Below are positions 3,272 to 47,955 of a DNA stretch of 64,000 nt, one piece after another. The notes below the pieces were generated by a model that was not told where the DNA came from, did no database searches, and was given only the letters and a program-made list of their open reading frames with translations. The stretch is from a virus. Lineage: Duplodnaviria; Heunggongvirae; Uroviricota; Caudoviricetes. The stretch lies in IMG/VR virus record IMGVR_UViG_3300021404_000007, positions 1 to 64,000 of that record; one strand, written 5' to 3'. The number at the start of each line of letters is the position of its first letter. Position 1 is the first letter of the stretch. The position numbers and the translations under genes are program-made.

Positions 3272-3281
3272 CGGTTGAGTG

Positions 3282-3568: not shown

Positions 3569-3586
3569 CACGCGAAACCTCGCGTG

Positions 3587-3660: not shown

Positions 3661-3789
3661 GAACCAACAGAAACGCCGAGCGCGTGGCAATTGAAGTACC
3701 GAATCGAAAGCGCGCAGGAGCAAGTGGACGCAGGCGCGAAGGTCGAGGAGCGCCTGGTGGAGCTGCGCCGATTGGCTGGCGTGCGATGA
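3658..3789 (+). CDS. small hypothetical protein (43 aa)
   Basis: SD AAGGAG followed by GTG; the stop overlaps the next ATG. Confidence 0.3.
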   Translation: MEPTETPSAWQLKYRIESAQEQVDAGAKVEERLVELRRLAGVR

Positions 3790-4013: not shown

Positions 4014-4024
4014 AGGAGAAGGAA

Positions 4025-4366
4025 GTGGCAGATATCTATAGCGAGCCATACGGCGAGCCATACGTGAAAGGTCCGTCCATCGACAGCGAAGGCGGACAGG
4101 AATACCAGCGGGTTCACCCGGACGTGGCGAAGGCGCTGCGCGACCGGTTCGACGGCGGCTCAGCCTCGGTGTGGCACCCGGACAAACCGGGCGTGATCCT
4201 GAGCGACATCGAGAACTGGTGGGACGGACCACGCGAGGTGAAATACCTGGGCGACGGCGAGATGGAGTTCACCAACCCGTACAACGGCGACGTGGACAGG
4301 TTCAACCTGACCGGCTACTACGACCGCGAAGGCAACTTCACGGTGCGAGGCACAGAGCAGTACTGA
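4025..4366 (+). CDS. hypothetical protein (alternative GTG start at 4010)
   Basis: SD AAGGAG 6 nt before the GTG at 4025; the ORF frame is 4010..4366. Confidence 0.55.
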   Translation: MADIYSEPYGEPYVKGPSIDSEGGQEYQRVHPDVAKALRDRFDGGSASVWHPDKPGVILSDIENWWDGPREVKYLGDGEMEFTNPYNGDVDRFNLTGYYDREGNFTVRGTEQY

Positions 4367-4404
4367 CGGCAGAACGCCGCCAGAACGAGTGAGAGGAGAT
4401 TCCG

Positions 4405-4608
4405 ATGAAGCCGAAGAGAGCCCAGGTGGAGGAGGCACTCGCCACCGAGATTCGCAACGGCGACGTGGGCCGATGCTACGGGCTTGCACTCGCGCTGGCC
4501 ATCTTGGTGGATTCCAGCACCGACGAGGAGCTGTGGCGCGTCGCCGAGGCGAATGGCCTGATGGACGTGGCCGTCCCGATGTTCAAGTGGACCGTCGGGA
4601 GATCGTGA
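4405..4608 (+). CDS. hypothetical protein
   Basis: Preceded by GGCAGAACGCCGC (4369) and SD GAGAGGAG. Confidence 0.55.
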   Translation: MKPKRAQVEEALATEIRNGDVGRCYGLALALAILVDSSTDEELWRVAEANGLMDVAVPMFKWTVGRS

Positions 4609-4682
4609 CTGCAGGTTCGCCGACGGGTGGCACGTCGGCGTTCCTGTGGCCACGGCAGGAAGCCGTGACCGATGAGAAAGGG

Positions 4683-4853
4683 ATGGCAGATATGTGTAGT
4701 TGGGATTGCCCGAAATGCGGGGCGTGCGACCCGGATGTTGAGACGTTAACGACGCCGGGATTTACCGGAGCACCGATATACGTCATGAACTATTCGTGCT
4801 GCGGATATCAGGACGTGGACGCGAGCGCCGACAACATCGACGCGGCGCGATAA
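4683..4853 (+). CDS. small Cys-rich zinc-ribbon protein
   Basis: GGGATGGCAGATATG start motif; CPKCGAC...CCGY. Confidence 0.5.
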   Translation: MADMCSWDCPKCGACDPDVETLTTPGFTGAPIYVMNYSCCGYQDVDASADNIDAAR

Positions 4854-4938
4854 CCGAAATCAAAACCGGAAAAAACCTCTGGAAGGTCACCGAGCCCGGT
4901 CGTTAAGTCCCGACCGGATTTGAAGGAAAGGAAAGTCA

Positions 4939-5442
4939 ATGGATGATGCGCGCGATTATCAGATGGATCCCAGCCCGCCGGACGAACCGGAATGGATGGA
5001 GATTCCCGAAGTCCTGTTCAGCGAGCTGCTGGCAGCTTGCGATCCGGTTCCGCAGGTCATAACGGCCGAGCGGCGCAAACAGTTGGAGCGGCAGAAGGAT
5101 GCGGTGACCGACGTGAACCGCAGCCTGCTGGTGGCAATGGTCGAGTACTTCGACGGAGCAGACCTGTTCTGCGATCACGCCGTGGGCATCTGCTCATGCG
5201 TGGCGATTGCCGTGCATGAGGAGCTGAAGATGTTCCTCCAAGGGATGCTGACCTGCCGAGCGTGTAGCGGCGAAGGCATCACGTGGGACGAGGACAAGTT
5301 CAAGGTCGAGATCGCCAAGATTGCCGCGGCCGATGGAATCACCGAGGCCCAGGCGCGCGACATGTGCGGCGACGGTCCGGGGTTCGTCCAGTGCGAGACG
5401 TGCGGCGGCAACGGCGTCGTGCGCGTGAAGAAGGAGGGGTAA
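4939..5442 (+). CDS. hypothetical protein with DnaJ-type CxxCxGxG zinc-finger repeats (CRACSGEG, CETCGGNG)
   Basis: 167-aa ORF with an SD. The motif spelling matches the DnaJ central Cys-rich domain. Confidence 0.55.
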   Translation: MDDARDYQMDPSPPDEPEWMEIPEVLFSELLAACDPVPQVITAERRKQLERQKDAVTDVNRSLLVAMVEYFDGADLFCDHAVGICSCVAIAVHEELKMFLQGMLTCRACSGEGITWDEDKFKVEIAKIAAADGITEAQARDMCGDGPGFVQCETCGGNGVVRVKKEG

Positions 5443-5720
5443 TGCAGGCACTCAACCTCGTGGCCGGACTGCTTCTCATTGGCGTTGGGCTCACGGTCGC
5501 GTTCTTCCCGGTGTACTGGCTCGTGGTCAATCGACCCAAACCACCTCCGGCACCGCCACGTCCGATTGAGATCGTGAAGCTGCCGCCAGACTTCTGGTTG
5601 CCGGAAAAGCGCGCGGCACGGATGGAGCGGTACGCCCGCGAGGAGCGTGAGCAGCGGCGGCGTAACCGCGTCTACTCCAACGGTCGCATTGGCGTTCTTT
5701 TCTGGATGTTCCGGCGATGA
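5442..5720 (+). CDS. membrane protein (1 TM, Pro-rich, basic C-terminus)
   Basis: TAATG overlap with the upstream gene. Confidence 0.5.
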   Translation: MQALNLVAGLLLIGVGLTVAFFPVYWLVVNRPKPPPAPPRPIEIVKLPPDFWLPEKRAARMERYAREEREQRRRNRVYSNGRIGVLFWMFRR

Positions 5721-5809
5721 AGGAGTCATGCCACCACGTCTACCGCGTGGAGCGCCGGTGGTACGGACCGGTCTTGGTCTGCGTGCGGTGTGAAAAGGAG
5801 CGGCCATGA
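5717..5809 (+). CDS. tiny Cys/His zinc-ribbon-like peptide (30 aa)
   Basis: ATGA overlap; CHH...CVRC. Confidence 0.25.
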   Translation: MKESCHHVYRVERRWYGPVLVCVRCEKERP

Positions 5810-5906
5810 AGCTTGAGTGAAGCTTCAATTCCACGTTGAAATTAAAATTCAAAATTCAAAATTGAAGCTTTTTTTGTTCACAATTCAAACGCGAAAGGAA
5901 ATAGAG
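5810..5906 (+). promoter_or_regulatory. AT-rich island: hairpin AAGCTTCAATT...AATTGAAGCTT plus T7 (terminator-like) enclosing TTCCACGTTGAA and AATTCAAA direct repeats.
   Basis: Read directly from the sequence. Confidence 0.45.
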
Positions 5907-6179
5907 ATGGCAAAGAACATGCAGCGTATTGAGGACAGCGTTGACGACGAGGGTTACGTCGTGCACGGATACAGCCGGTGGGACTGCGAGAAGTGCGGAC
6001 AGGAAGTCCGGCGCTATCGCGGTTCCTACGACGCGAGCTGTGACTGTGGAGCGCAGTACAACGCGAGCGGTCAGCGTTTGCGCGATGACTGGCGCGAAAA
6101 CCCGAGCTGGGACGACGAGAACATCGGCGACCTCGAAGGCGATGAGATCGCCGCGCTGCGCAGAGCGGGTGAGCTGTGA
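5907..6179 (+). CDS. zinc-ribbon protein (CEKCGQE...CDCG)
   Basis: SD GGAAATAGAG; 90 aa. Confidence 0.55.
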   Translation: MAKNMQRIEDSVDDEGYVVHGYSRWDCEKCGQEVRRYRGSYDASCDCGAQYNASGQRLRDDWRENPSWDDENIGDLEGDEIAALRRAGEL

Positions 6180-7377: not shown

Positions 7378-7553
7378 CGGACTACGACTGGCACAGCTGC
7401 CCGAAGTGCGGTGGTATCTGGCGGCTCAGCCCGTCGGGACCGCACCAGGAGTGGAGCTATGCGGATTCGGTGCGCGACGCCATGCGCCACGAGCCACGGG
7501 TGTGCATCGACTGCACGCTCAAGGAGCAGGGCGGGCCGTACGGCCCGATGTAG
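7374..7553 (+). CDS. zinc-ribbon protein (CPKCGG...CIDC)
   Basis: GTGA overlap. Confidence 0.5.
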   Translation: MTDYDWHSCPKCGGIWRLSPSGPHQEWSYADSVRDAMRHEPRVCIDCTLKEQGGPYGPM

Positions 7554-7591
7554 ACCACCCGGCAGAGCGCCGGTGGGGAAAGGAGTACGCG

Positions 7592-8443
7592 ATGAAGAGC
7601 ATGTGGACTGGGATGCTGGGATTCGGAATCGTGCAGATTCCGGTGAAGCTGTTCACGGCCACCGAGAACCATGATGTGGGGTTCCACTGGCACCACGGGC
7701 CGAAGTGCCTGGGGAATGTGGGTCTGGTCAAAACCTGCAAGAAGTGCCTGAAGCCGGTGGACCCCGGCGACATCCTCTCGGGCACCGAGGTGGACGGCAA
7801 GGTGGTGTTCGTCAGCGACGAGGAGAAGGCCAGCCTGGAAGCCGCGCAATCCAAGCAGATCGAGATTCTGGAGTTCGTGGGCGCGGGCGAGATCGATCCC
7901 ATCGAGTTTGAGAACACCTACTACGTGGGCACGGCCGAGGGCGAGAAGGCGTATGCGCTGCTGGCGCAGAGCATGGGCGGACTGACGGCGCTGGCCCGCT
8001 TCACCATGCGCGGCAAGACGCGGCGGGCCGCGCTGCGCGCCGTGGTCCGCGACGACCGGCTGGTGCTGATCCTGCACACGCTGCGCTGGCCGGACGAGGT
8101 TCGGGTGCCGGAGGTGCCGGGTCTGGGCGGCGATTACAGTGCGGCCGAGCTGAGGATGGCCAAGAAGGTTGTGCAGTCGATGGTGGAGAAGTACGACCCG
8201 AACGCCCTGGTGGACACCTACCAGGAACGGCTGCAGGAGCTGGTTGCGGCCAAGGCCGAGGGCGCCGAGTTCGTGGTAGAGCCCGCAGTGGAGTTGGACG
8301 CCAGTGACGTCAAGGACGTGCTGGCGCAGCTTGAGGCGTCAATCAGGGCGCATCCGGCTGGCAGGAAGAAGGTGGCCGCGAAGGCACCGGCTAAGAAAGC
8401 ACCGGCGAAGGCGCCGGTCAAGAGAAGGAAGGCAGTGGCATGA
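7592..8443 (+). CDS. ku: Ku (non-homologous end-joining DNA-end-binding protein) with a Lys/Ala-rich C-terminal tail
   Basis: The N-terminus MKSMWTGMLGFGIVQIPVKLFTATE matches the bacterial Ku signature (MRAIWKG.ISFGLV.IPVK...ATE). There is an internal CxxC pair and a KAPAKKAPAKAPVKRRK tail. It is preceded by GGCAGAGCGCCGG plus SD. Confidence 0.85.
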   Translation: MKSMWTGMLGFGIVQIPVKLFTATENHDVGFHWHHGPKCLGNVGLVKTCKKCLKPVDPGDILSGTEVDGKVVFVSDEEKASLEAAQSKQIEILEFVGAGEIDPIEFENTYYVGTAEGEKAYALLAQSMGGLTALARFTMRGKTRRAALRAVVRDDRLVLILHTLRWPDEVRVPEVPGLGGDYSAAELRMAKKVVQSMVEKYDPNALVDTYQERLQELVAAKAEGAEFVVEPAVELDASDVKDVLAQLEASIRAHPAGRKKVAAKAPAKKAPAKAPVKRRKAVA

Positions 8444-19003: not shown

Positions 19004-19362
19004 GCGAGACAGTCCCGCACGACGGCCTGATGATGACGGAAACCAGCACCGACGACGAGGTGCGGGTCATCAGGATCATCGGTCTGATCAACGGCGGCAA
19101 GACGGCGTTCGACGGGCAGTACCTGGTGCAGTACGACCCCGGCCGCGGCGGTGTGGAGCCGGTGACCGGCAGGCCGATGCTGTGCCACATGGTCACCCAC
19201 CCGGACGTGGAGCAGGCCACCAAGTACTCCGTCACGGACGCGGTCAAGGTGTGGCAGGCGGTGGACCCGCGCCACCCGGTGCGAGCGGACGGCAAGCCCA
19301 ACCGCCCGCTGACCGCCTTCAGTGTGGAGATCATGCCGCCGGACGCGGAGCCGTTCCTGTGA
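18991..19362 (+). CDS. hypothetical protein
   Basis: SD GAGGAGAGG. Confidence 0.5.
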   Translation: MEMVGETVPHDGLMMTETSTDDEVRVIRIIGLINGGKTAFDGQYLVQYDPGRGGVEPVTGRPMLCHMVTHPDVEQATKYSVTDAVKVWQAVDPRHPVRADGKPNRPLTAFSVEIMPPDAEPFL

Positions 19363-20117
19363 TCGTGCTGCTGCACAGCGGTGGACTTGACTCGCATGTG
19401 TGTTTCTTGATGCACCCAGACTGGAAGCCGGTGTACGTGGCACACGGCAGCGAGAACGAGGAGGCCGAGCTCAAGGCGCTGACCGACCTGCAGGAGCTGG
19501 ACCCGCGCTTCCGGGTGGTGGTGCTCCGGGCGGTGACTGGCGCCGCCAGGCACGACGGCCACATCGCCCACCGGAACCTGCTGCTGCTGACCACCGCGCT
19601 GGCCGTGTTTCCCATGGCGGAAGCCGTGGCCTTTGGTGCCCTGCTGGGTGAGGGATCGGGCGACAAGAGCCGGGCCTTCTGCCGTGCCACCGAGCGGGTG
19701 TGGCGGCTGAGCGAGGGCCGCAATGTCAAACTGTTGCGCCCGCTACGGCACATGACCAAGGCGCGTGCGCTGCGGCACGGTATGGCACTGCCGGGTGGAC
19801 GTGGGCTGGCTGTAACGACAAGCTGCTACCACGGCACGCACTGTGGGCGGTGTCAAGCCTGCTTCCGGCTGGGCATTGCCCGCTACCTGTGCGGGCTGGA
19901 CGCGGTGCCGCCGAAGCTACCGGCCGAGACGCTGGGGATACAGGCCACGCTGGAAGCGACCCCGGTGCGGCGCTGGCCCGCGCTGGCGCTGGCGAACGTG
20001 GACGTGCTGCGGGCGTACGCCCTCGCACGGCTGCGGCGGAACCTGGCCAAGCCGTACATCGGCGCCGGGCCACAGAGCTTAGGTCGGCATGGTGCCGACC
20101 GGGAGAGGGAGAAATGA
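19359..20117 (+). CDS. queC: 7-cyano-7-deazaguanine synthase QueC
   Basis: N-terminal PP-loop LLHSGGLDS; C-terminal Zn site SCYHGTHCGRCQACFRLGIA; 252 aa. Confidence 0.75.
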   Translation: MIVLLHSGGLDSHVCFLMHPDWKPVYVAHGSENEEAELKALTDLQELDPRFRVVVLRAVTGAARHDGHIAHRNLLLLTTALAVFPMAEAVAFGALLGEGSGDKSRAFCRATERVWRLSEGRNVKLLRPLRHMTKARALRHGMALPGGRGLAVTTSCYHGTHCGRCQACFRLGIARYLCGLDAVPPKLPAETLGIQATLEATPVRRWPALALANVDVLRAYALARLRRNLAKPYIGAGPQSLGRHGADREREK

Positions 20118-23155: not shown

Positions 23156-23162
23156 AGACCCT

Positions 23163-23203
23163 CGCGTGGCCCGTTCACCCTCGGGGCGGGCCACGCGAGC
23201 CTC
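23163..23203 (+). terminator. 13-bp stem hairpin CTCGCGTGGCCCG...CGGGCCACGCGAG
   Basis: Directly after the stop of 22667..23155; precedes the repeat expanse. Confidence 0.5.
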
Positions 23204-25760
23204 GGCTTGGCGGGCTTCGTCTCGGCGGGGCATGGCAGGGCTCGGGCGGCTCGGCTTGGCAGGCTGGGATGGCCCGTCCCGGCAGGTCCTGGCTTGGCGC
23301 GTCAGGCGTGGCAAGGAGGGCGGTACCGGCTGGGCGGTTCGTGGCTCGGCAGGCAGGTCCAGGCATGAATCGGCTCGGTGGGCCCGGCTCGGCAGGCAGG
23401 GCTTGGATGGCTGCGGTTGGAGGGCTTGGCGTGGCAGGCATGGCCAGTCCGGGGTGGGCTTTGCAGGGATGGCTCGGCGAGGTTGGCATGGCAGGCATGT
23501 CGTGGATGGCTTGGACAGCGCGGCCGGGCTCGGGTGGCAGGCCAGTCTTGGCGAGGACGGCGCGGCGCGTCCGGTCCCGGCAGGCTCGGCAGGGTGGGAT
23601 GGCCAGGAATGGTAGGCGTGGCACGGCAGGCTTGGCTAGCGATGGCGTGGCTCGAATGGCGAGGCCGGCTGGGCTAGGTCGGCTCGGCGGGGTCTGCTCG
23701 GCATGGCTGCCAGGGCTCGGCCCGGTCTGCTCGGCTTGGCTGGGCAGGCGGGTCTGGGCGAGGCAGGGTCCGCTTGGCGAGGCAGGTAGGGCTAGGCAGG
23801 TCTGGGCGAGGAGGGCTCGGCTTGGCGAGGCAGGCGCGGGAGGCATGGCGAGGTCGGCTGGGATGGCGGCGCTTGGAGGGCATGGCAGGCGTGGCAAGGA
23901 GTGGCTCGGCTTGGCTCGGTGGGCGTGGCAGGCATGGTTGGCGGGGCGCGACGTGGACGGCATTGGCGGGGCAGCGCCCGGCAGGCGAGGAGTGGCGCGT
24001 CTTGGCCCGGATGGCCGGGCAGCCTTGGCCCGTCCCGTCCCGGCGTGACGGCGCAAGGCCAGGCATGGCTCGGCACGGCAGGCGAGGTAGGCGAGGGCGG
24101 CTTGGGTGGCACGGCGCGGCGTGACCAGGCAGGCATGTCCCGGGTGGCATGGCGGTGGTCCGCACGGCTCGGCAGGCGTGGCGCGTCTTGGTTGGCTTGG
24201 AAGGCACGCTGGGCACGGCAGGGCAGGCTCGGCATGGTTGGCGCTGCAGGGATGGCGGGGCTTGTCCTGGGCAGGCGGGGCAAGGATGGGTGGTTGGCGC
24301 GGCACGGCGTGGCTCGGCACGGCAGGCTAGGCACGGCTTGTCCCGGGCGGCGGGGCGAGGACGGCTCGGCTCGGCAGGCTAGTCGAGGGCGGTTGGCGCG
24401 GTTGGCTCGGCAGGCACGGCATGTCTTGGGCGGCTGGGCTTGCTTGGCACGGCTTGGCATGGCAGGCGTGGCGAGAGGTGGCGCGGAGGGCTGGTCGCGG
24501 AGGGCGCGGCAGGCGAGGCTAGGCGGGGAAGGCGCGGGCGGCGGGGTCGGCGCGGCAGGCACGGTTGGCGAGGCTGGGATGGATGGCTTCGCACGGCAAG
24601 GCAGGCGAGGCTTGATGTGGCTAGGCCCACATGGCGCGGCTCGGCAGGCGCGGGAGGCATGGCGCGGGCGGCATGGCTTGGACCGGCACGGCGTTGGCAG
24701 GCACGGTCGGCGCGGCGGGGCGGGGATGGATGGCGCGTCCTGGTGGGGCCTGTCAGGCGCGGTGGGCTTGGCAGGGATGTCCGGTCTTGGAGCGCAGGCT
24801 CGGTAGGCGTGGAAGGCAAGGTCGGCGCGGCCGGGCAGGCTAGGCAGAGCGCGGATGGCTGGGCGTGGCGGGCCTCGGCTCGGCAGGCTGGGCAGGGATG
24901 GCAGAGCTGGTCCCGGCATCGGTCGGCTGGGCGCGGCGCGGCGTGGCAAGGCAGGCATGGAGTGGCACGTTTGGCGAGGCCGGGATGGCAGGCAAGGTAG
25001 GCCCGGTCCGCTTGGCTTGGCTGGGCAGGCGAAGCGCGGCTAGTCCGGTCAGGGCTTGGCATGGGAGGCCCGGCAGGTGAGGCGGGGCGTTGCTAGGACG
25101 GCAGTGCCAGGCTTGCCAGGCAAGGCGTGGATGGAGTGGACGGTTGGCGAGGCGCGGCAGGCAAGGTCCGTCCGGGCTGGGCTAGCTTTGCGGGTCGCGG
25201 CTAGTCCGGGCAGGCGGGGCTAGGCAGGGACGGGCTCGGAGGGCTCGGTCGGCGCGGCAGGGCGGGGCGGGGCGGGGCAGGCGCGGCTCGGCATGGTCGG
25301 CTTCGGATGGCTCGGCTTGGCAGGCATGGTCGGCTGGGATGGCTAGCGTTGGCGTGTCGCGGTCGGGCTCGGCGGTCTTGGCTAGGCCCGGATGGTTCGG
25401 GCGGGCATGTCCCGGCAGGCGACGCGAGGCAAGGTAGGCGTGGAAGGCATGGCGAGGCCGGGCAGGCAGGGCTTTGCTTGGTTGGCTTGGTTGGCGATGC
25501 CCGGCATGGCAGGCATGGCTTCGCTCGGCGAGGCAGGAACCGGCTAGGCGTGGCTGGGCTCGGCAGGCTCGGCCGGTCACAGCAACGGCAGGGCATGGCC
25601 AGGCGGGGCAGGCACGGCAGGGCAATGCTTGGATGGCGCGGCCGGGCTTGGCTGGGCGGGGCAGGCAGGTCAAGGCTAGGGCGGCATGGCTCGGCCCGGT
25701 TGGCAGGCGGGGCTCGGCGGTTCGGGGTCGGCTCGGCAGGGCAGGGCACGGCAGGCGCGA
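23204..25760. repeat. G-rich degenerate short-period repeat expanse, block 1 (GGCNNGGC words; period about 4-5 / about 9 nt).
   Basis: Dominant words are GGCAGGCATGGC, GGCTCGGC and GGCTTGGC. The + strand is about 49% G versus about 23% C. Open reading frames appear in all six frames (an artefact). Confidence 0.7.
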
Positions 25761-25774
25761 AAGGAACGAGCGTG

Positions 25775-26014
25775 ATGGAACACGATCTGAACGGGCGGCG
25801 CACGCCACAAGTGCTCACTGACGAGCACAAAGACGGGTCGCTGTGGATCAATCACCGCGACGAAATCTGGGCTTGGGTGCACGACGATTGGCGGATGCTC
25901 CGCAACAGCGGACTGTGGTCGGGAATCGGCCTCTATAGCGGCGAGTCGCAGATGCGCGCTGCTGGTCCGTTCACCGAAGTTGACTTCGCCAAGCTGTCGG
26001 GCGGGCTGGGCTAA
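25775..26014 (+). CDS. hypothetical protein (79 aa) embedded between the repeat blocks
   Basis: SD GAAAGGAACGAG followed by ATG. Normal composition; Trp-rich. Confidence 0.55.
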   Translation: MEHDLNGRRTPQVLTDEHKDGSLWINHRDEIWAWVHDDWRMLRNSGLWSGIGLYSGESQMRAAGPFTEVDFAKLSGGLG

Positions 26015-26470
26015 GCACGGTTGGCTTGGCAGGCAGGGCTTGGTAGGCAGGGCATTGGCAGGGCTTGGTAGGCGTGGCTCGGCAGCGGCTGGCAGGCAAG
26101 GCCCGGTGTTGGCCAGGCGTGACTGGTCTTGGCTCGGCAGGCAAGGCTCGGTCGGCTTGGGCTGGAAGGCCCGGCATGGCCGGGTAGGTCCCGGCAGGCA
26201 TGGCTCGGACGGCTAGGTCGGCTCGGCGTGGCCTGGCGCGGCAGGCATGGACAGGGAGTTGGGGCATGGCTGGTCGAGGCAAGTCCTGGCCTGGCCCGGC
26301 AGGCGGGGCAGCGGCTTGGCCCGAATTGGCATGGATGGCAGGGACGGCGCGGCACGGCAGGCGAGGCGTGATGTGGCCCGACGTGGCCTGGTTAGGCGAG
26401 GCGGGGTGAGGCCCGGCAGGCCCGGCTGGGCAAGGGGTGGCTAGGAAGGCCTGGCTCGGCTTGGCAGGCA
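26015..26470. repeat. G-rich repeat expanse, block 2
   Basis: Same GGC-periodic words as block 1. Confidence 0.65.
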
Positions 26471-26504
26471 TGGCAAGAAACAAGAAACAAGAAAGGAAGT
26501 ACAG

Positions 26505-26864
26505 GTGAGAGGCGAACTAACGATCAACGTGCGGAGGACTGAGCTGCTGGAAGCCCTGAAAGAGAACCGTGATCTGCACGGTGCCGCCTTCGAGAAGGCG
26601 AAGGCCGGCTACGTCAGGGTCGAGCGGCGGCACCTACTGGAGGCACTGGACCGGCTGGACCGGGGCGAGATGATCAACCGCATCCTCGGCAACGTGCCGC
26701 CGGAAAACCACACGTCGGACTACGACGACGCCATCGACATGATGATGTGGTCCACCGACGACATCGTGGAGCTGACGCAGCAGCAGTTCAAGCAGTACGT
26801 CAAGGACGACTGGGGCTGGAAGAACCAGTGGGTCACGTCCAACAGCATGTACCTGGAGGCGTAG
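26505..26864 (+). CDS. hypothetical protein
   Basis: SD AGGAAG followed by GTG. Confidence 0.5.
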   Translation: MRGELTINVRRTELLEALKENRDLHGAAFEKAKAGYVRVERRHLLEALDRLDRGEMINRILGNVPPENHTSDYDDAIDMMMWSTDDIVELTQQQFKQYVKDDWGWKNQWVTSNSMYLEA

Positions 26865-26872
26865 CAGCAGCG

Positions 26873-27529
26873 ATGGACCGGCCGTGCTCCCGGTGCGGGA
26901 AGGTGGAGCAACTGCGCCGGGGGCTCTGTCACGCCGACTATGAACGTGACCGCCGTGCTGGCCGCATCGAATCGCTGGTGTCGGCACAGCAGACCCGCAA
27001 CCACCTCGTGTGGTTGCGGGTCAACGGCTGGCGCTACCGGGAGATAGCGCGGGCCGCGGGCATCAACCGCTCCCAGCTGGCCAGGGTGTTCGCCGGGCGC
27101 CAGCTGATCAATGTCAAGACGGCCAACCGCATCTGCGCCATCGACCCGACCACCCGCTCCGAGTACATCAGGTTGGCCTGGGACACCCGGCGGGAGAACG
27201 CGGCCAGGCGTGCCTGGGACCACAGCTATGAGGGCTTACGGGCGTCGTTCGAGCAGCGCCATCCCGTCGTCGTTCCGGTACCCAAGCCGGGAGAGTGGAC
27301 GCGCGCCGCGCTGTGCGCGCAGGTGGACAACGAGATGTTCTTTCCGGAGAAGGGGGGCGCCACCCGGCACGCCAAGCGGATATGTCTCGGCTGCGAGGTG
27401 CGTGAGAAGTGCCTGGAGTTCGCCCTCGACAACGAGATCCGGCACGGCGTGTTCGGTGGCTTTTCGGATCGGGAACGGCTGCGGCTCGCCGCAGCGCGTC
27501 GCGGCCGGGGCAAGGACGGCGGCGCATGA
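26873..27529 (+). CDS. WhiB-like (Wbl) Fe-S regulator fused to an N-terminal Cys-cluster / HTH extension
   Basis: The C-terminus CAQVDNEMFFPEKGG...CLGCEVREKCLEFAL...GVFGG matches the Wbl signature. The N-terminus carries CSRCG...CHADYE and an HTH-like WRYREIARAAGINRSQLARV. Confidence 0.65.
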   Translation: MDRPCSRCGKVEQLRRGLCHADYERDRRAGRIESLVSAQQTRNHLVWLRVNGWRYREIARAAGINRSQLARVFAGRQLINVKTANRICAIDPTTRSEYIRLAWDTRRENAARRAWDHSYEGLRASFEQRHPVVVPVPKPGEWTRAALCAQVDNEMFFPEKGGATRHAKRICLGCEVREKCLEFALDNEIRHGVFGGFSDRERLRLAAARRGRGKDGGA

Positions 27530-33461: not shown

Positions 33462-34364
33462 GTGTTCTACCGGGACTTGTCGGTACCTGGTGCTAACGTC
33501 AAACGCATGTCACATCCAACCATACTGCCTGGTACGCCCGAGCACTCTCGACTGATTTCACCATCCAAGATTCCCTCTATTTGCGGTATTTCCCGTTGGG
33601 AGTCTCAATACACCTGCTGGCACCGCATGAAAGGACTGCTGGACCCGAAGCCGCCGCAGGACATCTTCACCGTTGGCCTGGCGTTCGAGCCCGCGCTGGC
33701 CTACCTGTGGAAGTCGGAGAATCCCGGCTGGCGGCTCTCACCCGGTGAGGTGCAGTACGTCACCGACCGGTTCGGCTTCCCGGCCTGTGCCACCATCGAC
33801 CGGCGGGCCAGTAGGGGCAAGGCGCGCAAGGTGGTCGAGTTCAAGATCGCCCACCACACCGACGAGTGGGGCGACGTCAATCTTGAGGGCGACTGCCCGA
33901 CCGACTACGCCCTACAGGTGATGGCGCAGATGGTGCTCACCGGCCTCTACAAGCAGAACGCCGACCTGATGGTGATGGGCCCGTTCTTCAAGCACCGCAC
34001 CTACCACGTCAAGTACGACGAGGCGGTGGCCCGGTGGATGATCCAGGAGTGCCAGCGGTTCTACGCCAGCCTGGACGGTGACGTGCCGCCGGACCTGGAC
34101 GACAGCACCAGCACCTACGCGGCGGTGCGTGAGCTGCACCCGGACATCACGCCCGGCCTGAAGGTGGAGATACCCGAGGCGCTGGCGCAGGACTACCACA
34201 CCGCACACGCCGAGAGCAGTGCGGCCGAGCGCACGCTGCGCGGCCTGAAGTCGAAGATCCTGGCCACCGTCGGCAGCGCGCAGTACGTGGTGTGCAACGG
34301 CGAGGTGGTGGCCGCCCGGCAGCCGCACGCGAGGGGCGGCGTGGCGCTGGTGAGGAAGCCATGA
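33462..34364 (+). CDS. YqaJ/RecE-like PD-(D/E)XK exonuclease (alternative start ATG 33507)
   Basis: LISPSKIPSICGISRWESQYTCWHRMKG matches the YqaJ N-terminal motif. Confidence 0.65.
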   Translation: MFYRDLSVPGANVKRMSHPTILPGTPEHSRLISPSKIPSICGISRWESQYTCWHRMKGLLDPKPPQDIFTVGLAFEPALAYLWKSENPGWRLSPGEVQYVTDRFGFPACATIDRRASRGKARKVVEFKIAHHTDEWGDVNLEGDCPTDYALQVMAQMVLTGLYKQNADLMVMGPFFKHRTYHVKYDEAVARWMIQECQRFYASLDGDVPPDLDDSTSTYAAVRELHPDITPGLKVEIPEALAQDYHTAHAESSAAERTLRGLKSKILATVGSAQYVVCNGEVVAARQPHARGGVALVRKP

Positions 34365-34666
34365 GGGAGTACTACAACACCAACCGGGAGAGCGGGGACA
34401 CGCTGGCCACCAGTGTCACCCAGGCACGCAACCAGCGGCTCACCATCCTGGCGTTCTTCGAGCGCCACCCGGACACCCTCTTTGCGCCGCACGAGATACA
34501 GCGCCGGGTGTTGCCCACCGCGCCTCTCACGTCGGTGCGCCGGGCCATGACGAACCTGACCGAGGAGGGCCGGTTGGAGAAGACCCACGAGATGGAGCGC
34601 GGCAGCTACGGGAAGCAGGTACACCGCTGGCGGCTGCGCCAGGAGGAGTCCGAGTACCTGTGGTGA
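34361..34666 (+). CDS. winged-HTH DNA-binding protein
   Basis: ATGA overlap; between the exonuclease and RecT. Confidence 0.5.
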   Translation: MREYYNTNRESGDTLATSVTQARNQRLTILAFFERHPDTLFAPHEIQRRVLPTAPLTSVRRAMTNLTEEGRLEKTHEMERGSYGKQVHRWRLRQEESEYLW

Positions 34667-34824
34667 TTAGCACTCTGCGTTGGCGGCTGCCAAGTTCTAT
34701 GAGTTTTGTAGGTAACGACCGGATTACGGGCGTAGGTTCTCACTACCTCGACCTGTTTACCTGGTCGTCGCCCATTAAAAAACGTCACCGCATACGGCGG
34801 TGGAGTGAGAAAGGGTGATGAACA

Positions 34825-35784
34825 GTGTCAGAGAACACCACATCGGAAGTGGCGCCTGTTAGCCAGGAGCCCGAGTTTACCGTTGCTGAAATTACCGAGC
34901 CGACCACCGGCGCACTGCGCCGGCTGGAAGCCGAAGTGGCCGCGCTGGACAAGGCGTACCACTGGGCCAAGGCGATGAGTAAGACCACGATGGTGCCCGA
35001 GCACTTCCAGTACAACCACAAGCCACGGGGTTGCACGGACCCGCTGGGCGAGGTAGCTACCTACAACCTGGCCGCGGCGGTCATGTACGGCATCGAGATC
35101 GGCCTGTCTGCCATGCAGGCCGCGCAGAACGTCTTTGTCGTGCACGGCAAGCCCGCCGTCTACGCCCGCACGATGGCCGCACAGGTGCGTGCCGCCGGGT
35201 ACGTCATCGAGCCGGTGGAGGAATCCGACGAGCGGTGCGTGTGGAAGGGGCTGCGCGACGGCACCTGGGCCTTCTCGGAATGGAGCATCGAGCGCGCCGC
35301 GCAGGCGGGTTACACCGCCAACGAGCGGTACACGAAGAACCCGCAGGAGATGTTGCGCGCCAAGTGCATTGCCGAGGTGTGCCGCATCAAGTACCAGGAC
35401 GTGCTGCTGGGCATGGCGTACAGCGTGGAGGAGTTGCAGCTCGAAGAGTCCACCGTGCAGCGGGTGGTTCGCCAAGGCCCACGCGGCACCTCCGCGCTAC
35501 GTCAGCTGGCCTCGATGAGCAATGACATAGCCGCCGCGCCCGAACCTGCCGCTGGCCCAGAGCCCGAGACTGAGCCAGCGCCAGAGGGCAACGCGCCGAG
35601 CAGTGAGCAGCTTATCGAAATCCGCAAGCTCTACAAGGCCAAGGGCTTCACGGGGCAGGCCATGCTGGACGAGCTGACGCAGTACCTGCAGCGCGAGGCG
35701 CCCATCACCAGGCTCACGTTCCTCACCTTTGACGAGGCTGCCGACGTGATCGCGCACCTGACCGAGCCGGTGGCAGATGCGTAA
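34825..35784 (+). CDS. recT: RecT-family single-strand annealing protein
   Basis: 319 aa. The RecT-like core sits next to the exonuclease, as in the Che9c gp60/61 arrangement. Confidence 0.6.
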   Translation: MSENTTSEVAPVSQEPEFTVAEITEPTTGALRRLEAEVAALDKAYHWAKAMSKTTMVPEHFQYNHKPRGCTDPLGEVATYNLAAAVMYGIEIGLSAMQAAQNVFVVHGKPAVYARTMAAQVRAAGYVIEPVEESDERCVWKGLRDGTWAFSEWSIERAAQAGYTANERYTKNPQEMLRAKCIAEVCRIKYQDVLLGMAYSVEELQLEESTVQRVVRQGPRGTSALRQLASMSNDIAAAPEPAAGPEPETEPAPEGNAPSSEQLIEIRKLYKAKGFTGQAMLDELTQYLQREAPITRLTFLTFDEAADVIAHLTEPVADA

Positions 35785-43245: not shown

Positions 43246-43803
43246 CTAGGCCTCCATGTGCAGCTGCTGAATCAGCGAGATCTCGTACGGTTGCAGGTGC
43301 CCGCGGGTCGCCACTGTAGTCGTCATGGTGGCCGGCGACTTGACCCCGCGCAGCTTCATGCACGAGTGCTCGGCGGTGATTAGACAGGTGGCCCCGGACG
43401 GAGACAGCATGTGCATGAGGGAGTCCACCACCTGCTGCCCGATCCGCTCCTGCACCTGTAGCCGGGCGGCGTAGGCGTAGACCAGCCGGGTGAGCTTGGA
43501 CAGGCCGACGATGCGCTGGCCGGTGTGCGGGCGGTAGGCGACGGTGGCGCGGCCGAGGATGGGCAGCAGATGGTGCGCGCACGTGCTCTGTACGTCTATA
43601 CCCGCCTGGACGATGAGCCCCGGATCGCGCGGCGCCGGAAATGTCGTCTGAAGGTAATCCTCTGGATTCTCCTGGTAGCCCCAAAGCTGGTCCTTGAGCG
43701 ACTTGGCCACGCGAGCAGGAGTGTCGGCGGTGTGCTCGCCCTCGTCGACCCCCAGCGCGTCGAGAAGGAGCTTGACCGCGCTCTTGACGTCATCGGTTTC
43801 CAC
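43246..43803 (-). CDS. folE: GTP cyclohydrolase I (FolE)
   Basis: CAHHLLP active-site motif; T-fold size (185 aa). Confidence 0.7.
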   Translation of the reverse strand: METDDVKSAVKLLLDALGVDEGEHTADTPARVAKSLKDQLWGYQENPEDYLQTTFPAPRDPGLIVQAGIDVQSTCAHHLLPILGRATVAYRPHTGQRIVGLSKLTRLVYAYAARLQVQERIGQQVVDSLMHMLSPSGATCLITAEHSCMKLRGVKSPATMTTTVATRGHLQPYEISLIQQLHMEA

Positions 43804-44284
43804 AACGCATCTCCTGGTCCGCGTCGTTGTGCGTGAACAGTTGGTTGCGCTTGGTCACCGCCGCCAGCTCGGCGGCTCCCTTACTGGCGTACCGGCCGAG
43901 GTAGTAGGTGTGGTGGTTGTGCCGCACCACCGCCTCCCACGCTCCCCGGTGCCACCGCACGCCCCGGACCTGTGAGCGGCTGTTGCGCCGCTCCCCGGCC
44001 AGGTTCTCCATGTTCTGCTTGTGCGTCACCGGCCGCAGGTGGTCCGGGTTCACGCAGATCTTCGGGCAGTGCCGGTGGTGGTCCACCAGTCCGGTCGGCG
44101 GTGCGCCGTGCACGAAGGCCCAGGCGTTGCGGTGCGCCTGCCAGGTGCCGAACACCCGGTTGTCGAACTTCCCGTAGCCGCGGCCATCCACGCACGCCGT
44201 CCACAGCCAGCATCGGGTTCCCAGCACCGGGTTGATCGGACCCTGCTTGTTCACCTTCGCCCAGAACCGTTCGGCCGGTGTCAC
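43790..44284 (-). CDS. HNH homing endonuclease with an AP2 DNA-binding domain
   Basis: CWLWT..GYGKF...HHRHCPKICVNPDHL; GVRWHRGAWEAVV. Confidence 0.65.
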   Translation of the reverse strand: MTPAERFWAKVNKQGPINPVLGTRCWLWTACVDGRGYGKFDNRVFGTWQAHRNAWAFVHGAPPTGLVDHHRHCPKICVNPDHLRPVTHKQNMENLAGERRNSRSQVRGVRWHRGAWEAVVRHNHHTYYLGRYASKGAAELAAVTKRNQLFTHNDADQEMRCGNR

Positions 44285-44348
44285 GGCGCCCGCCCGTGTA
44301 ACGTCGCGCCGGTGATCCGTTGGCTGCGTTCCCTTTTCGACTCCACCA

Positions 44349-45056
44349 TCAGGTTCCTCGTTGGTCGCCGAACGCCAGTATTTGCAGCCGGTGCGAGCAG
44401 TTCACCCGTAGCCGGATCGATTCCTCGACAATGGCGCCGAATGACTCCTGGAGGTGAGCGGTGTCGGTACCTTCCGGCATCATCCAGACATTCCACCTTG
44501 GCCAGCCGTGCCGGTCGGCCAGCGACACGGCTTCTTTGACGTCCTGTGCGTTGCGCACCACGAACTTCAGGCAGGTGAACCGCAGCTTGATGTGCTGCGG
44601 CCACTCGGCCAGCTCGGGATTCTGGCCCGGCTTGTGCGTGGTGTTGGAGAGCTTGGGCGAGATGGAGTAGTGCCGGACGAACGTCTGCGTAGCCTCGCTC
44701 GGCGCCAGCGTGCCGTTGGTTTCCACCGAGATGAACTTGTCCTTGCCCGCCAGTGCGCGCAGCAGCACCTCCCACTCCGGATTCTTCTGGTGCATCAGCG
44801 GCTCGCCGCCGGTCAGGATGACCTCGTTGACCTCCGGGTCCACCAGCCGCACGATGCTGGCCGGGCTCATCCGGGTGATCTCCTCTTTCAGGTCGTAGAA
44901 GCGGGAGTCCCAGGTGTATGCCGAGTCGCAGACCCAGCCGCCCGCGTAGCCGCAGGAGAGGTTGCAGCCGCCGAAGCGGATGAACGCGCACAGGCGGCCG
45001 GCGCGCGGCCCCTCGCCCTGGATGCTGGTGAACGCCTCCACCACCGGCAGCGTCAT
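44349..45056 (-). CDS. queE: 7-carboxy-7-deazaguanine synthase QueE (radical SAM)
   Basis: FGGCNLSCGYAGGWVCD Cys cluster; 235 aa. Confidence 0.7.
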   Translation of the reverse strand: MTLPVVEAFTSIQGEGPRAGRLCAFIRFGGCNLSCGYAGGWVCDSAYTWDSRFYDLKEEITRMSPASIVRLVDPEVNEVILTGGEPLMHQKNPEWEVLLRALAGKDKFISVETNGTLAPSEATQTFVRHYSISPKLSNTTHKPGQNPELAEWPQHIKLRFTCLKFVVRNAQDVKEAVSLADRHGWPRWNVWMMPEGTDTAHLQESFGAIVEESIRLRVNCSHRLQILAFGDQRGT

Positions 45057-45511
45057 GTGCCCGCACCCGTCAGCACGACGTGCGGCAGCGGCCCGGAGTC
45101 GGATATCGACGGGAACCAGGTGGCCGTGTTGTCCGGCCCCTCCCGCAGCTCGACCGAGAGCAGCGGCGCCTTGGGCAGCGCGCGTCGGCTGTGCTTGGCG
45201 ATCTCGGCGGCGATGGCCTCGGTGGTGGGCTGCCCGATCAGCGCGTAGTACTTCAGCTTCCCGGCGCGCAGGTAGCCGATGAACTCGTCCTCGCGGTCGA
45301 TGATGAACCCGTGGTCGAACAGCGTGGCGATCATCGCGCGCAGCTTCTCTTTGACGGCGCCGAACTCCAGCGGGTCGCCGACATCCTGGGCGTAGGTCCA
45401 GGTGACGTGGAAGGTATGGCCGTGGATATTACGACATTTGGCGCCCGGCCCGGTGAGCCCGAGGATGCGATGCCCGGCGGCGAAGTGGGTACGTACCGAA
45501 ATGGTGCTCAT
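45053..45511 (-). CDS. queD: 6-carboxy-5,6,7,8-tetrahydropterin synthase QueD
   Basis: FAAGHRI...GKCRNIHGH motif; ATGA overlaps on both sides. Confidence 0.7.
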   Translation of the reverse strand: MSTISVRTHFAAGHRILGLTGPGAKCRNIHGHTFHVTWTYAQDVGDPLEFGAVKEKLRAMIATLFDHGFIIDREDEFIGYLRAGKLKYYALIGQPTTEAIAAEIAKHSRRALPKAPLLSVELREGPDNTATWFPSISDSGPLPHVVLTGAGT

Positions 45512-46413
45512 GAGTACACCTGCTCTCCCCGTGCCAGCTTGGCCACGGTCTCGATGTGCTGCGGATGGCCGTCCACCAGGTACAGGATCGGGCCGGTGAA
45601 ATCCTCTGCCCAGCCGCCGAGGCGACCCCACTTGGGCGACGGCACCGGGTTGTGCCGGTGGAAGTAGCGCAGCTGCTGCTCCTGCACGCTGGCCGAGAGC
45701 GCCGATAGCCGCACCATCATCAGCCGGTTGTGCGGTGCGCTGGTGGAGACTTCGCTCGGGTTCACCCCGTAGTGATCGCGCAGCAGGCACGCGATGTCCT
45801 GGCTGTAGGTGCCGCGCCCGTTCAGGTCGATGCTGTGCACCTTGCCCTGCCGCTGCGGGTCGCGCAGGTGCAGCCGCCCGTAGCGGTAGCTGGACCCCCA
45901 GCCGGAGGAGTCCACACTGAAGAACGGCAGCCGCAGGTGGCTCTTGTTGGCCAGCCCCCAGCCGTGGAACCGGACGTGCGGGTGGTTGTCCCGCGCGTAC
46001 TTGAAGCAGGCCACCATCCACCGGAACTTCTCCTGGATGCCCGCGTCGACCAGCGCCATGCCGCCCAGCCCGATGAAGTCCACGCCGCGCTCGACGTAGT
46101 AGTCCATGGTTTCCGGCCGCTCGCGCAGGTGGATGGTGGGTACACCGGGGATACCGGCGTCCACCATCTCGTTCCAGTTGTACTTGCTCGTCTCGGCGTT
46201 GCCGGTGATGTCGAGGCTGGCGATCCACGAGATGCGGTGGTGGTACATCTGCGCCCACGTCACCAGGTTCCTCGTCTCCACCGGCTTGCCCAGCGTGCGC
46301 AGGCTGACGGCGCCGGAGTCGGCGGCGATCCGGCACGGGGCCAGCCTGTCCAGGTCGTACTTGTGGTAGTACGCGAAGGACACCAGCAGGTTGCGCGGCG
46401 GTGCGATGGTCAC
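45508..46413 (-). CDS. dpdA: DpdA-like 7-deazaguanine DNA transglycosylase (TGT family)
   Basis: TGT-like fold, IAADSGAV and VDFIGLGGMA; position in the preQ0 operon; GTGA overlap. Confidence 0.55.
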   Translation of the reverse strand: MTIAPPRNLLVSFAYYHKYDLDRLAPCRIAADSGAVSLRTLGKPVETRNLVTWAQMYHHRISWIASLDITGNAETSKYNWNEMVDAGIPGVPTIHLRERPETMDYYVERGVDFIGLGGMALVDAGIQEKFRWMVACFKYARDNHPHVRFHGWGLANKSHLRLPFFSVDSSGWGSSYRYGRLHLRDPQRQGKVHSIDLNGRGTYSQDIACLLRDHYGVNPSEVSTSAPHNRLMMVRLSALSASVQEQQLRYFHRHNPVPSPKWGRLGGWAEDFTGPILYLVDGHPQHIETVAKLARGEQVYS

Positions 46414-46760
46414 GGTATCGCCCAGCTGATGTCGTCCGGCAGGTGCAGGTCGTCGGGCAGGTCCACGTCCTTGCGCCCGCTGATCACCACCGTGCCGTAG
46501 AAGTGCACCCAGCCGTTCACCGGCTCCGTGCGCCCGCTGGGGTTCAGTTCGTGCCACAGCTTGGTCGCGGTGTCGTTGCGCGGCGGCATTGCGCCACTCC
46601 AGATGTGGGTGTACCAGAACAGCACGTTGCCCACCTCGGTGCTGGCGCTGTCCAGGTCGGCGCCGATGATGCCCTGTAGCCGCTGCACGAAGCCGGTCAG
46701 GTCGAAGGGCTGCACCTCCAACGGACCGAGAATGGGGTGGATCACCAGCGCCAGCATCAT
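46410..46760 (-). CDS. hypothetical protein (116 aa) in the deazaguanine operon
   Basis: ATGA overlap with the GT gene. Confidence 0.5.
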   Translation of the reverse strand: MMLALVIHPILGPLEVQPFDLTGFVQRLQGIIGADLDSASTEVGNVLFWYTHIWSGAMPPRNDTATKLWHELNPSGRTEPVNGWVHFYGTVVISGRKDVDLPDDLHLPDDISWAIP

Positions 46761-47386
46761 CGCTTCAGCAGCTCGCGCATGACCTCGGGCTTGCCGTAGG
46801 CGAACTGGTACAACTTCCAGCGGCTGCGGGTGGTGGCCGCGGTGGGTTCCCTGTCGTTCTCGTGGTCGAACGACCAGGCGATGCCCTCCACCCGTTCCAC
46901 CGCCGCCAGTGTCTCGGCGGCTGCCTTGAACGCCTTGTCCTCGTAGCCCCACACCGCGCCGAAGCGCTCGTCGTAGCCGCCCAGCCACCAGAACAGATCG
47001 GACGCGCACACCAGGATGCCGCCGGCCGCGTCGTACTTGGTGAAGCACGGTTCCACCACGTACAGGTCGTCCAGGTCGTAGGCCACCGCCTCGGCTGGCA
47101 TCGCCCGGTAGCGGGTGAAGGGGTAGACCACGGCACCGCCGTTGGCCAGGTCCACCGCCCGCCGCAGCGCGGGCATCTCACACACCGTGTCGGCGTCCGC
47201 GATGATGACGATTTCCGCCGCCGCCGACTTCACCGCGTTGTTGCGCGCCTGGCTGCGGTGGAAGGGCTGCGTGGGTTCGCTGTCGCCGAGGTAGACCGGG
47301 TAGTCTGCCCAGAACTCCATGGCGCGGTAGAAGGCGGGCAGCCGGGTGGGCTGCGCCCGCCACGGGATGCAGACGGCAACCCGCAT
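46757..47386 (-). CDS. GT-A fold glycosyltransferase (GT2/GT7-like; DxD ADADT; WGYEDKAF)
   Basis: 209 aa; TGATG overlap with the ParB-like gene. Confidence 0.5.
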   Translation of the reverse strand: MRVAVCIPWRAQPTRLPAFYRAMEFWADYPVYLGDSEPTQPFHRSQARNNAVKSAAAEIVIIADADTVCEMPALRRAVDLANGGAVVYPFTRYRAMPAEAVAYDLDDLYVVEPCFTKYDAAGGILVCASDLFWWLGGYDERFGAVWGYEDKAFKAAAETLAAVERVEGIAWSFDHENDREPTAATTRSRWKLYQFAYGKPEVMRELLKR

Positions 47387-47955
47387 CAGATGCCCAGCAG
47401 GGCGTTCATCGCCGTGGTGTCGTTCTCGAACTCGTCCCGGTGCTTCTTCCACGCCGCCAGCGTCGGGGTGTCCACCACCAGCAGCAGGCGGCTCATGAAG
47501 TCCTCGTCGCCCAGCGGGCCACCCGCTTCGTTCTCCAACTCGTCCAGGTCCGGCGCACCGGCCAGCATCTCCTGCAGCATCTGCACGTAGTCCTCGTCGA
47601 AGCCGGTGCCTTCCAGGGTGTCGATCTTGAGCAACACCTCCAGCAGGGCTTCCATGTCCGGGCCGGGGCCAAGCTCGGCAATCCTGTTGTCCGCCAACAG
47701 GATCTTGCGTGCGCTCGTCTCGTCGGCATCCACCATGTCCACCCGTAGTGTCTTGAGTTTGAGGCCCTTGGCCGCCTGCCAGACGTGGTGCCCGGCCAGG
47801 ATGGTGCCGTCCTTGTTGACCACCACGCTGCGGTACTGGCCGTGCTGTTCCAGGCTCTCGGTAATGGCGTTCACGTCGCCACGGTTCGGGTTCTCCGGGT
47901 GTGGATGCAGCTTGCCGACAGGCATTTCCTTCTGGCCCATGAATGTGACTGTCAC
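47386..47955 (-). CDS. ParB-like nuclease-domain protein (possible DpdB analogue)
   Basis: HPHPENPNRGD ParB/Srx box. Confidence 0.55.
   Translation of the reverse strand: MTVTFMGQKEMPVGKLHPHPENPNRGDVNAITESLEQHGQYRSVVVNKDGTILAGHHVWQAAKGLKLKTLRVDMVDADETSARKILLADNRIAELGPGPDMEALLEVLLKIDTLEGTGFDEDYVQMLQEMLAGAPDLDELENEAGGPLGDEDFMSRLLLVVDTPTLAAWKKHRDEFENDTTAMNALLGI

Follow-up and report, generated by a model that had tools for sequence, protein, structure and literature searches.

In the 64,000-nucleotide (nt) stretch of caudoviral DNA analyzed here (hereafter the window; positions 1 to 64,000 of IMG/VR record IMGVR_UViG_3300021404_000007), an operon of eight open reading frames (ORFs) on the minus strand (43246-47955) combines the genes of a phage 7-deazaguanine DNA-modification module with a gene for a GT-A fold glycosyltransferase (GT), which sits, together with a small ORF termed here unk116, between a ParB-like gene and the transglycosylase gene dpdA. 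Judging from its gene context, this GT may well be a functional part of the module, which would then yield a glycosylated 7-deazaguanine, an interpretation that we hold with about even confidence. The link between the GT and dpdA rests on gene context in short metagenome contigs, and within that context the comparative evidence is decisive: all eight related lineages with readable upstream DNA carry an extra gene in the slot between the ParB and DpdA genes, and in seven of them this gene encodes a sugar transferase. The genes of the operon, in order from the ParB-like gene to folE, and a QueC-like gene encoded elsewhere in the window are as follows (aa, amino acids; pI, isoelectric point; phrog, family of the PHROGs database):

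47386..47955, minus strand: ParB N-terminal-domain protein, first gene of the operon (189 aa, pI 4.6; phrog_723, E 8e-36)
46757..47386, minus strand: GT-A fold glycosyltransferase (209 aa; phrog_1721, 'galactosyl transferase', E 2.5e-41)
46410..46760, minus strand: unk116, a conserved 116-aa protein with no family, its gene overlapping those of both the GT and DpdA
45508..46413, minus strand: DpdA-type DNA guanine transglycosylase (301 aa, pI 9.2; phrog_7068, E 5e-117)
45053..45511, minus strand: QueD, 6-carboxytetrahydropterin synthase (PF01242, E 2.6e-18; phrog_2389, E 3e-26)
44349..45056, minus strand: QueE, radical S-adenosylmethionine 7-carboxy-7-deazaguanine synthase (phrog_2076, E 5e-55; TIGR03963, E 6e-24)
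43790..44284, minus strand: HNH/AP2 homing-type endonuclease, inserted in the operon (phrog_3593, E 1.4e-47)
43246..43803, minus strand: FolE, GTP cyclohydrolase I, last gene of the operon (PF01227, E 7e-50)
19359..20117, plus strand: divergent QueC-like PP-loop protein, about 25 kilobases (kb) from the operon (PF06508, E 5.6e-15)

The gene content, gene order and start/stop overlaps that had been proposed in an earlier reading of this DNA (the original prediction) were confirmed for all eight ORFs. As read in the sequence, the ParB and GT genes join at TGATG with a 1-nt overlap, the GT and unk116 genes at ATGA, unk116 and dpdA at GTGA, and dpdA and queD, like queD and queE, at ATGA, such that the first six genes, ParB through QueE, are chained by overlaps of 1-4 nt; a gap of 64 nt separates queE from the HNH gene, which in turn overlaps folE by 14 nt. 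In its called frame, each operon gene has a GC content at third codon positions (GC3) of 0.86-0.94, and the highest values of the operon are common to the GT, unk116 and dpdA. The GTG start of the ParB gene at 47955 is supported by the conservation of the resulting N-terminus, VTVTF, in relatives. Scans of the operon for promoters and terminators scored no better than shuffled sequences.

By homology, the core of the operon belongs to the known phage modules for DpdA-type modification of DNA with 7-deazaguanine. DpdA shares 57-58% identity with the gp2 proteins of the mycobacteriophages Rosebush and Saguaro (57% over 93% of the length against Rosebush gp2), and FolE, QueD and QueE are co-located with it in one operon; the window DpdA had no match to DpdA in PADLOC. 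In Rosebush DNA, the deoxynucleoside of 7-cyano-7-deazaguanine (preQ0), dPreQ0, is present at ~28% of G (PMC6884629). The original prediction relied on the distant QueC for making preQ0, and a QueC-family gene does lie at 19359-20117, with SGGLDS and C-x5-C-x2-C-x2-C motifs in its translation, but it is divergent: it scores 45 bits against TIGR00364, for which the NCBIfam cut-off is 150, its best phage matches are QueC genes at just 25-31% identity, and it matches no PDB sequence. Because the only QueC of the window is divergent and lies outside the operon, the inserted base could be preQ0 or 7-carboxy-7-deazaguanine (CDG), the product of QueE, and preQ0 is an assumption.

The AlphaFold model of the window GT, built with 30 homologs, has a GT-A fold (predicted local distance difference test score, pLDDT, 94.7). 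Its D64-A65-D66 motif is invariant in 30 homologs and its WGYED motif is conserved; the family profile matches beta-1,4-galactosyltransferases 7 and 1 (E 2.5e-5), and homologs have precomputed matches to PF02709 and PF10111, with the window protein itself falling below the curated Pfam thresholds of PF00535 (22.1 vs 23.3 bits) and PF02709 (19.1 vs 23). Neither homology nor a shared fold was found with the characterized DNA GTs (T4 alpha- and beta-glucosyltransferases and relatives). Among the 98 ORFs of the window this is the only one to match a GT family, and it is therefore not part of a glycan-assembly cassette; sugar-nucleotide genes, or enzymes making another glycosylatable base, were not detected among these ORFs.

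The closest relatives of the window DpdA (63-71% identity) come from metagenomes only and constitute clade A of a neighbor-joining (NJ) tree, in which its sister, clade B, is supported by 99% of bootstraps. (Neither DpdA nor the GT gave a match when IMG/VR was scanned with the single protein, and alignment queries were used instead.) All seven other clade-A contigs with readable upstream DNA (L108-L113 and L116) have the order ParB, X, DpdA, QueD, QueE, FolE, where X is a GT2-like protein of 251-327 aa with an invariant LDDDA motif (Pfam Glycos_transf_2, E 1e-8 for the L111 copy), and its gene overlaps dpdA through an ATGA or GTGA junction at six of the six loci examined. Mean pairwise identities are 65% for X, 68% for ParB and 74% for DpdA, and the identities of X track those of both ParB and DpdA (r 0.85 in each case), indicating long co-inheritance of X with the operon rather than a recent insertion. 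X was not found elsewhere in INPHARED, IMG/VR or GTDB genomes by short-pattern scans, which may miss distant relatives.

BLASTP found nothing between X and the window GT; hhalign aligned the two end to end with their DxD and ED motifs in register, at a probability of 41%, E 3e-4 and 19% identity. One slot is thus filled by two GT-A enzymes that are remote homologs at best. The tie between GT and dpdA that had originally been proposed holds insofar as a GT-A enzyme occupies the same slot in seven lineages, but that enzyme is of a different, very distant family; and the possibility raised at the same time, that the GT and unk116 are unrelated cargo whose relatives do not accompany dpdA, was not borne out by the comparison of gene neighborhoods.

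Neither clade B (L085, L086, L118-L120, L125, L126) nor the Rosebush group has a GT between ParB and DpdA: the two genes abut in most of these loci, and in L085 two small unassigned ORFs lie in a 670-nt gap. One further clade-B lineage (L122/L124) encodes a member of the window GT family (35-39% identity by tblastn) on the other strand, 157 nt beyond folE:

L124, 4318-5001, minus strand: homolog of the window GT, beyond folE, convergent
L122, 6440-6961, minus strand: homolog of the window GT, beyond folE, convergent

An NJ tree of this GT family, read without its support values, did not group the L124 enzyme with the window GT, and the GTs of L122 and L124 were likely recruited separately from that of the window. 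A dpdA-linked subfamily uniting the window and L124 GTs was rejected for this lack of clustering.

The second gene in the slot, unk116, is real: its GC3 is 0.93, and synonymous codon differences outnumber non-synonymous ones in comparisons with the near-identical contigs L002 (5:2) and L004. Its sole distant relative in a phmmer search of 1.8 billion representatives was P0191 (107 aa, 48% identity, E 3e-12), encoded on a JGI contig of 2.3 kb, where a partial gene (an 83-aa fragment) is followed by P0191, HNH, DpdA (P0075, 68% identical to the window DpdA) and QueD. This arrangement ties unk116 to dpdA of clade A in another lineage, which has diverged from that of the window. Families matching unk116 were absent from Pfam (even at E 10), PHROGs, NCBIfam, PADLOC and PDB profiles; tblastn against phages gave no match, a word-indexed search returned only its own lineage, a scan of IMG/VR for the unk116 family found none, and hhalign gave a probability of 0.2% for homology to X. 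Its single-sequence AlphaFold2 model was unusable (pLDDT 38). Two other candidates were set aside: P0192, a repeat protein of 1275 aa that includes a GT-B domain, matched unk116 too weakly to be trusted (E 6.6e-5), and contig L050, considered as a continuation of the P0075 contig, was rejected, its GT lying near a portal gene and without ParB.

On sequence similarity, the first protein of the operon belongs to the ParB N-terminal domain superfamily: PDB ParB chains match it at E 5e-4, a precomputed PF02195 match is weak, and over residues 1-131 it shares 58% identity with the ParB domain that Gordonia phages carry fused to DNA methyltransferases. Its only PADLOC match is to the N-terminal part of MTase_II, a model for type II methyltransferases (E 2e-9). 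The original prediction had called this gene ParB/DpdB-like. A ParB-domain protein beside the DpdA module it is, but an orthologue of DpdB it is not, given the lack of a PADLOC DpdB match, its size of 189 aa, the motif AGHHV where DpdB has DGQQR, and just a short tail after the ParB domain in place of the two-domain architecture of DpdB. The partnership of ParB and dpdA is conserved across loci, with a ParB gene upstream of dpdA in 20 of the 23 IMG/VR loci, mostly directly adjacent, and before dpdA in most metagenome loci with upstream sequence as well. By analogy with DpdB, which serves bacterial DpdA (PMC10164549), the ParB-like protein may be an accessory of DNA-modifying enzymes, and a partner of the methyltransferase-fused type supports a role of the GT in DNA modification. 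In a separate IMG/VR contig (L018), a ParB-domain DNA methyltransferase (2942-4297, minus strand) stands divergently beside a homolog of the window GT (4453-5292, plus strand), a single case that may be due to chance.

In the mechanism that we propose, FolE, QueD and QueE would convert GTP to CDG and DpdA would swap guanine in DNA for a 7-deazaguanine, both predicted from homology to characterized enzymes, and the QueC-like enzyme encoded elsewhere may take CDG to preQ0. The ParB-domain protein would help the modifying enzymes engage DNA, and the GT, presumably made in a fixed ratio with ParB and DpdA by way of the overlapping stop and start codons, would use a nucleotide sugar to glycosylate the deazaguanine, either as a free base before its insertion by DpdA or as a base in DNA; unk116 may be a lineage-specific helper of the window GT, for example in acceptor preparation or docking. 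Chemical precedent for a glycosylated deazapurine comes from two actinomycete enzymes: HuiG, which glycosylates a preQ0-derived base in the formation of huimycin (PMC7439116), and AvpGT, a GT2 enzyme that glucosylates the 7-deazapurine nucleoside tubercidin at its 3'-O (PMC11959488). A glycosylated 7-deazaguanine would shield the genome from restriction enzymes and host deazaguanine glycosylases, and the existence of host glycosylases targeting deazaguanine DNA (bioRxiv 10.1101/2025.10.29.685425) provides a selective reason for further modification. Taken more broadly, and tentatively, there may be an actinobacterial phage clade with sugar-bearing 7-deazaguanine in its DNA, whose lineages swap GT-A enzymes along with helpers (unk116 or, in L111, an oxidoreductase resembling short-chain dehydrogenases/reductases, SDR), thereby varying the sugar, and in which ParB would be the DNA-loading adaptor common to the GT and DpdA; this we regard as possible rather than probable.

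Several observations weigh against glycosylation of a deazaguanine base by the window GT. The 7-cyano group of preQ0 cannot take a sugar, which leaves no obvious acceptor, and the base is uncertain even at the core of the module since clade-A operons are without queC (none in the operon or within 10 kb); candidate acceptors would be the exocyclic N2, for which huimycin is the precedent, or, should the pathway stop at 7-amido-7-deazaguanine (ADG) or CDG, the 7-carboxamide or 7-carboxylate. With pI values of 4.6-5.9 (vs 9.2 for DpdA), the window GT, X proteins and ParB are all acidic, a mild argument against DNA binding by the GT alone that is compatible with action on a free base or with recruitment by DpdA. 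Moreover, bootstrap values within clade A are only 6-43%, and the NJ tree therefore gives no order of arrival for X and the window GT.

Other observations speak for a rival explanation, in which the GT and unk116 are cargo: a GT for virion proteins or the host envelope that has settled in a permissive operon junction and is merely co-transcribed. The closest named homologs of the window GT (41-46% identity) lie in isolated phages, in runs of three to four GT genes with no dpdA or que genes (Gordonia phage Octobien14 gp118-121 and Mycobacterium phage Alice gp226-231), the Alice cassette adjoining a capsid-decoration gene; none of 80 IMG/VR loci with homologs of the window GT has DpdA, QueD, QueE or FolE within 10 kb, and none of the 23 IMG/VR loci with DpdA homologs has a window-type GT. 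By these contexts alone the window GT would look like borrowed cargo, and its acidity, as well as the acceptance of other genes (an exonuclease, a DpdA paralog, HNH) by the same slot in other phages, agrees with this. However, a GT occupies the slot in the window and in seven other clade-A lineages with readable upstream DNA, drawn from two very distant families, with the overlap onto dpdA kept and with concordant divergence; X has been seen in the dpdA slot only; the window has one GT and no cassette; and the GC3 of the GT matches that of dpdA. We thus consider cargo unlikely, while granting it a real share of the probability.

Alternatively, the GT could act outside DNA on a free 7-deazapurine base or nucleoside, detoxifying or sequestering intermediates of the pathway, or inactivating a deazapurine antibiotic made by the host, in the manner of the Streptomyces enzymes AvpGT/NucGT, which glucosylate tubercidin. 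An acidic GT suits a small-molecule acceptor, HuiG glycosylates a preQ0 derivative, and tubercidin-glucosylating AvpGT (PMC11959488) is the top PDB match of the window GT in Foldseek (E 7.8e-8; template modeling score, TM, 0.65; identity 19%). Foldseek had been suggested in the original prediction; the structural neighbors of the GT that it gave are generic inverting GT-A enzymes, itself a point against a deazaguanine-directed GT, and as the margin of AvpGT over them is small, we regard its match as a curiosity that carries no weight as evidence. A detoxifying enzyme would not be expected to have its gene tightly coupled between those of ParB and DpdA, which both act on DNA, and no transporter or resistance genes occur among the window ORFs around it, making this explanation improbable.

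We assign an equally small chance to a GT whose target is a position in the DNA backbone, a base other than the deazaguanine, or one of the proteins ParB and DpdA, which it would regulate or stabilize. ParB domains of this type partner methyltransferases acting on normal bases, and preQ0 has no obvious acceptor, but no hydroxymethylase, TET or other enzyme that makes a glycosylatable base was found among the 98 window ORFs, and literature searches found no precedent for regulation of DpdA by a GT. Direct glycosylation of canonical DNA bases is not known either. Finally, decay of the GT and unk116 into non-functional remnants, to which the near lack of unk116 relatives might point, is very improbable in view of the intact DxD and WGYED motifs of the GT, uninterrupted frames with coding-type GC3 (0.93), the excess of synonymous over non-synonymous changes against L002 and L004, and unk116 motifs kept at 48% identity in P0191.

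The slot and its surroundings hold further genes in other loci. A 285-aa DpdA paralog (29% identity) lies between ParB and the main DpdA in L089 (5109-5966) and L096 (4303-5160), giving tandem transglycosylases. Mycobacterium phage StAugustine (L139; PV251870), a 101-kb isolate, has the order ParB, exonuclease, DpdA, QueC fusion, QueD, QueE, FolE at 428-6120; its slot gene encodes an Rv2179c-like 3'-5' exonuclease annotated as DnaQ-like, and the length of its QueC fusion (471 aa) hints at a differing final base. In L111, a gene for an oxidoreductase resembling mycofactocin-coupled SDR enzymes (884-1693; TIGR03971, 251 bits vs a cut-off of 300) stands between ParB and X and overlaps each of them by 4 nt. 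The enzyme could modify either the sugar or the base, and its presence hints at a host that contains mycofactocin. L140 and L141 are too short to cover the slot.

HNH/AP2-type genes likewise occur at differing junctions of dpdA operons (QueE/FolE in the window, and DpdA/QueD or directly upstream of DpdA in relatives), at these positions:

Window, 43790-44284
L109, 9671-10177
L141, 1-231
JGI 3300047160 contig, 803-1114

Relatives have no HNH gene at the QueE/FolE junction, and similar HNH genes are present elsewhere in L109, L141 and the P0075 contig. The varied positions suggest homing endonucleases that target the dpdA operon.

Outside the operon, the window, which derives from an uncultured phage, encodes minor tail proteins, an endolysin, a Ku-like end-binding protein (7406-8443), a RecE/RecT pair (33462-35784) and a WhiB-type regulator in the form of a helix-turn-helix-WhiB fusion (26747-27529). 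The GC content of ~66% and the WhiB-type regulator point to an actinobacterial host. The operon is matched at 99-100% identity by a 100.9-kb ENA metagenome contig and a 42.8-kb Logan contig; megablast of the operon and of window positions 1-25000 against INPHARED gave no match, so there is no close sequenced isolate of this phage, and a scan of GTDB genomes for clade-A DpdA found none, hence neither a prophage nor a host assignment. DUF6283 and DUF7352 proteins are common to the window and the L108 contig, extending synteny with clade-A relatives beyond the operon. A region of ~3.3 kb (23160-26500; GC 0.73, GC skew +0.29) is without any ORF of coding-like codon bias and consists of degenerate G-rich repeats with a 7/14-nt periodicity (GGCxxGG...), resolved by Tandem Repeats Finder into many short arrays.

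Compared with known systems, the window operon follows the logic of the Rosebush dPreQ0 module, in which ParB precedes DpdA (57% identity for DpdA and 39-60% for QueD, QueE and FolE; Hutinet et al., 2019, PMC6884629), and its core would be expected to serve the same end, exchanging a fraction of the G in the phage genome for a 7-deazaguanine. The operons of Rosebush and Saguaro consist of ParB-like gp1, DpdA gp2, QueC, QueD, QueE and FolE without an intervening GT, whereas that of the window has the GT and unk116 between ParB and DpdA, no queC within the operon and an inserted HNH gene; it is also located on the opposite strand in the non-structural part of the genome, whereas the Rosebush operon precedes the terminase at the left end of the genome. 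The bacterial Dpd systems similarly place a transglycosylase of the tRNA-guanine transglycosylase family beside a ParB-fold protein (Yuan/Gedara et al., 2023, PMC10164549), in Salmonella DpdB, an ATPase required for preQ0 insertion, but the window has no DpdC and none of the DpdD-K restriction genes, and its ParB is not DpdB. If the GT acts as proposed, the ParB gene found ahead of dpdA in phages like Rosebush would gain a testable role.

Phages are known to tailor 7-deazaguanine through the methyltransferase DpdM, the formyltransferase DpdN, DpdL, QueF, Gat-QueC and ArcS (Cui et al., 2023, PMC10516641), and the proposed GT would be similar in being an extra enzyme of the dpdA cluster that diversifies the 7-substituent; however, none of the eight phage 7-deazaguanine derivatives known carries a sugar (PMC10516641). 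Neither of two surveys of deazaguanines in phages (2019, PMC6884629; 2023, PMC10516641) mentions 'glycosyl' or ParB, and the later one also lacks 'sugar'; full-text literature searches for deazaguanine or DpdA together with glycosyltransferases or glycosylation found no such cluster described, and a 2026 genome-mining preprint on 7-deazapurine pathways excludes dpdA-containing loci. The GT thus lies, as had been claimed, outside the deazaguanine DNA pathways described in the literature searched, which contains no account of a dpdA operon with a GT or of DNA bearing a glycosylated deazaguanine: the core is known, and the GT embedded in it across a clade is new.

GTs that accompany the FolE/QueD/QueE/QueC pathway or act on its products are known from actinomycetes (HuiG of huimycin, AvpGT/NucGT), but these work on free bases or nucleosides in secondary metabolism, from clusters without dpdA, and the huimycin-family GTs belong to PF13439, a family other than that of the window GT. 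Unlike Octobien14 and Alice with their multi-GT cassettes, the window has just one GT, placed within an operon for DNA modification. It offers a candidate DNA- or deazapurine-directed GT-A enzyme with a ParB-domain adaptor in a small gene set (ParB-GT-unk116-DpdA plus the Que genes).

The proposed logic is that of T-even phages, in which a first-layer base modification, 5-hydroxymethylcytosine (hmC), is capped with a sugar derived from a nucleotide sugar, thereby evading the enzymes that recognize the first layer. The T4 alpha- and beta-glucosyltransferases that act on hmC have a GT-B fold, whereas the window enzyme has a GT-A fold with DxD, is unrelated to them in sequence and has a deazapurine as its presumed target. 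If this holds, a glycosylated purine analogue would be known from a genome for the first time; it would constitute a new class of natural DNA base and likely a counter-measure to host deazaguanine-DNA glycosylases. Base replacement followed by sugar capping would then extend from pyrimidines, as in the glucosyl-hmC of T4, to purine analogues, as a deazaguanine counterpart of the arms race over hmC glucosylation in T-even phages.

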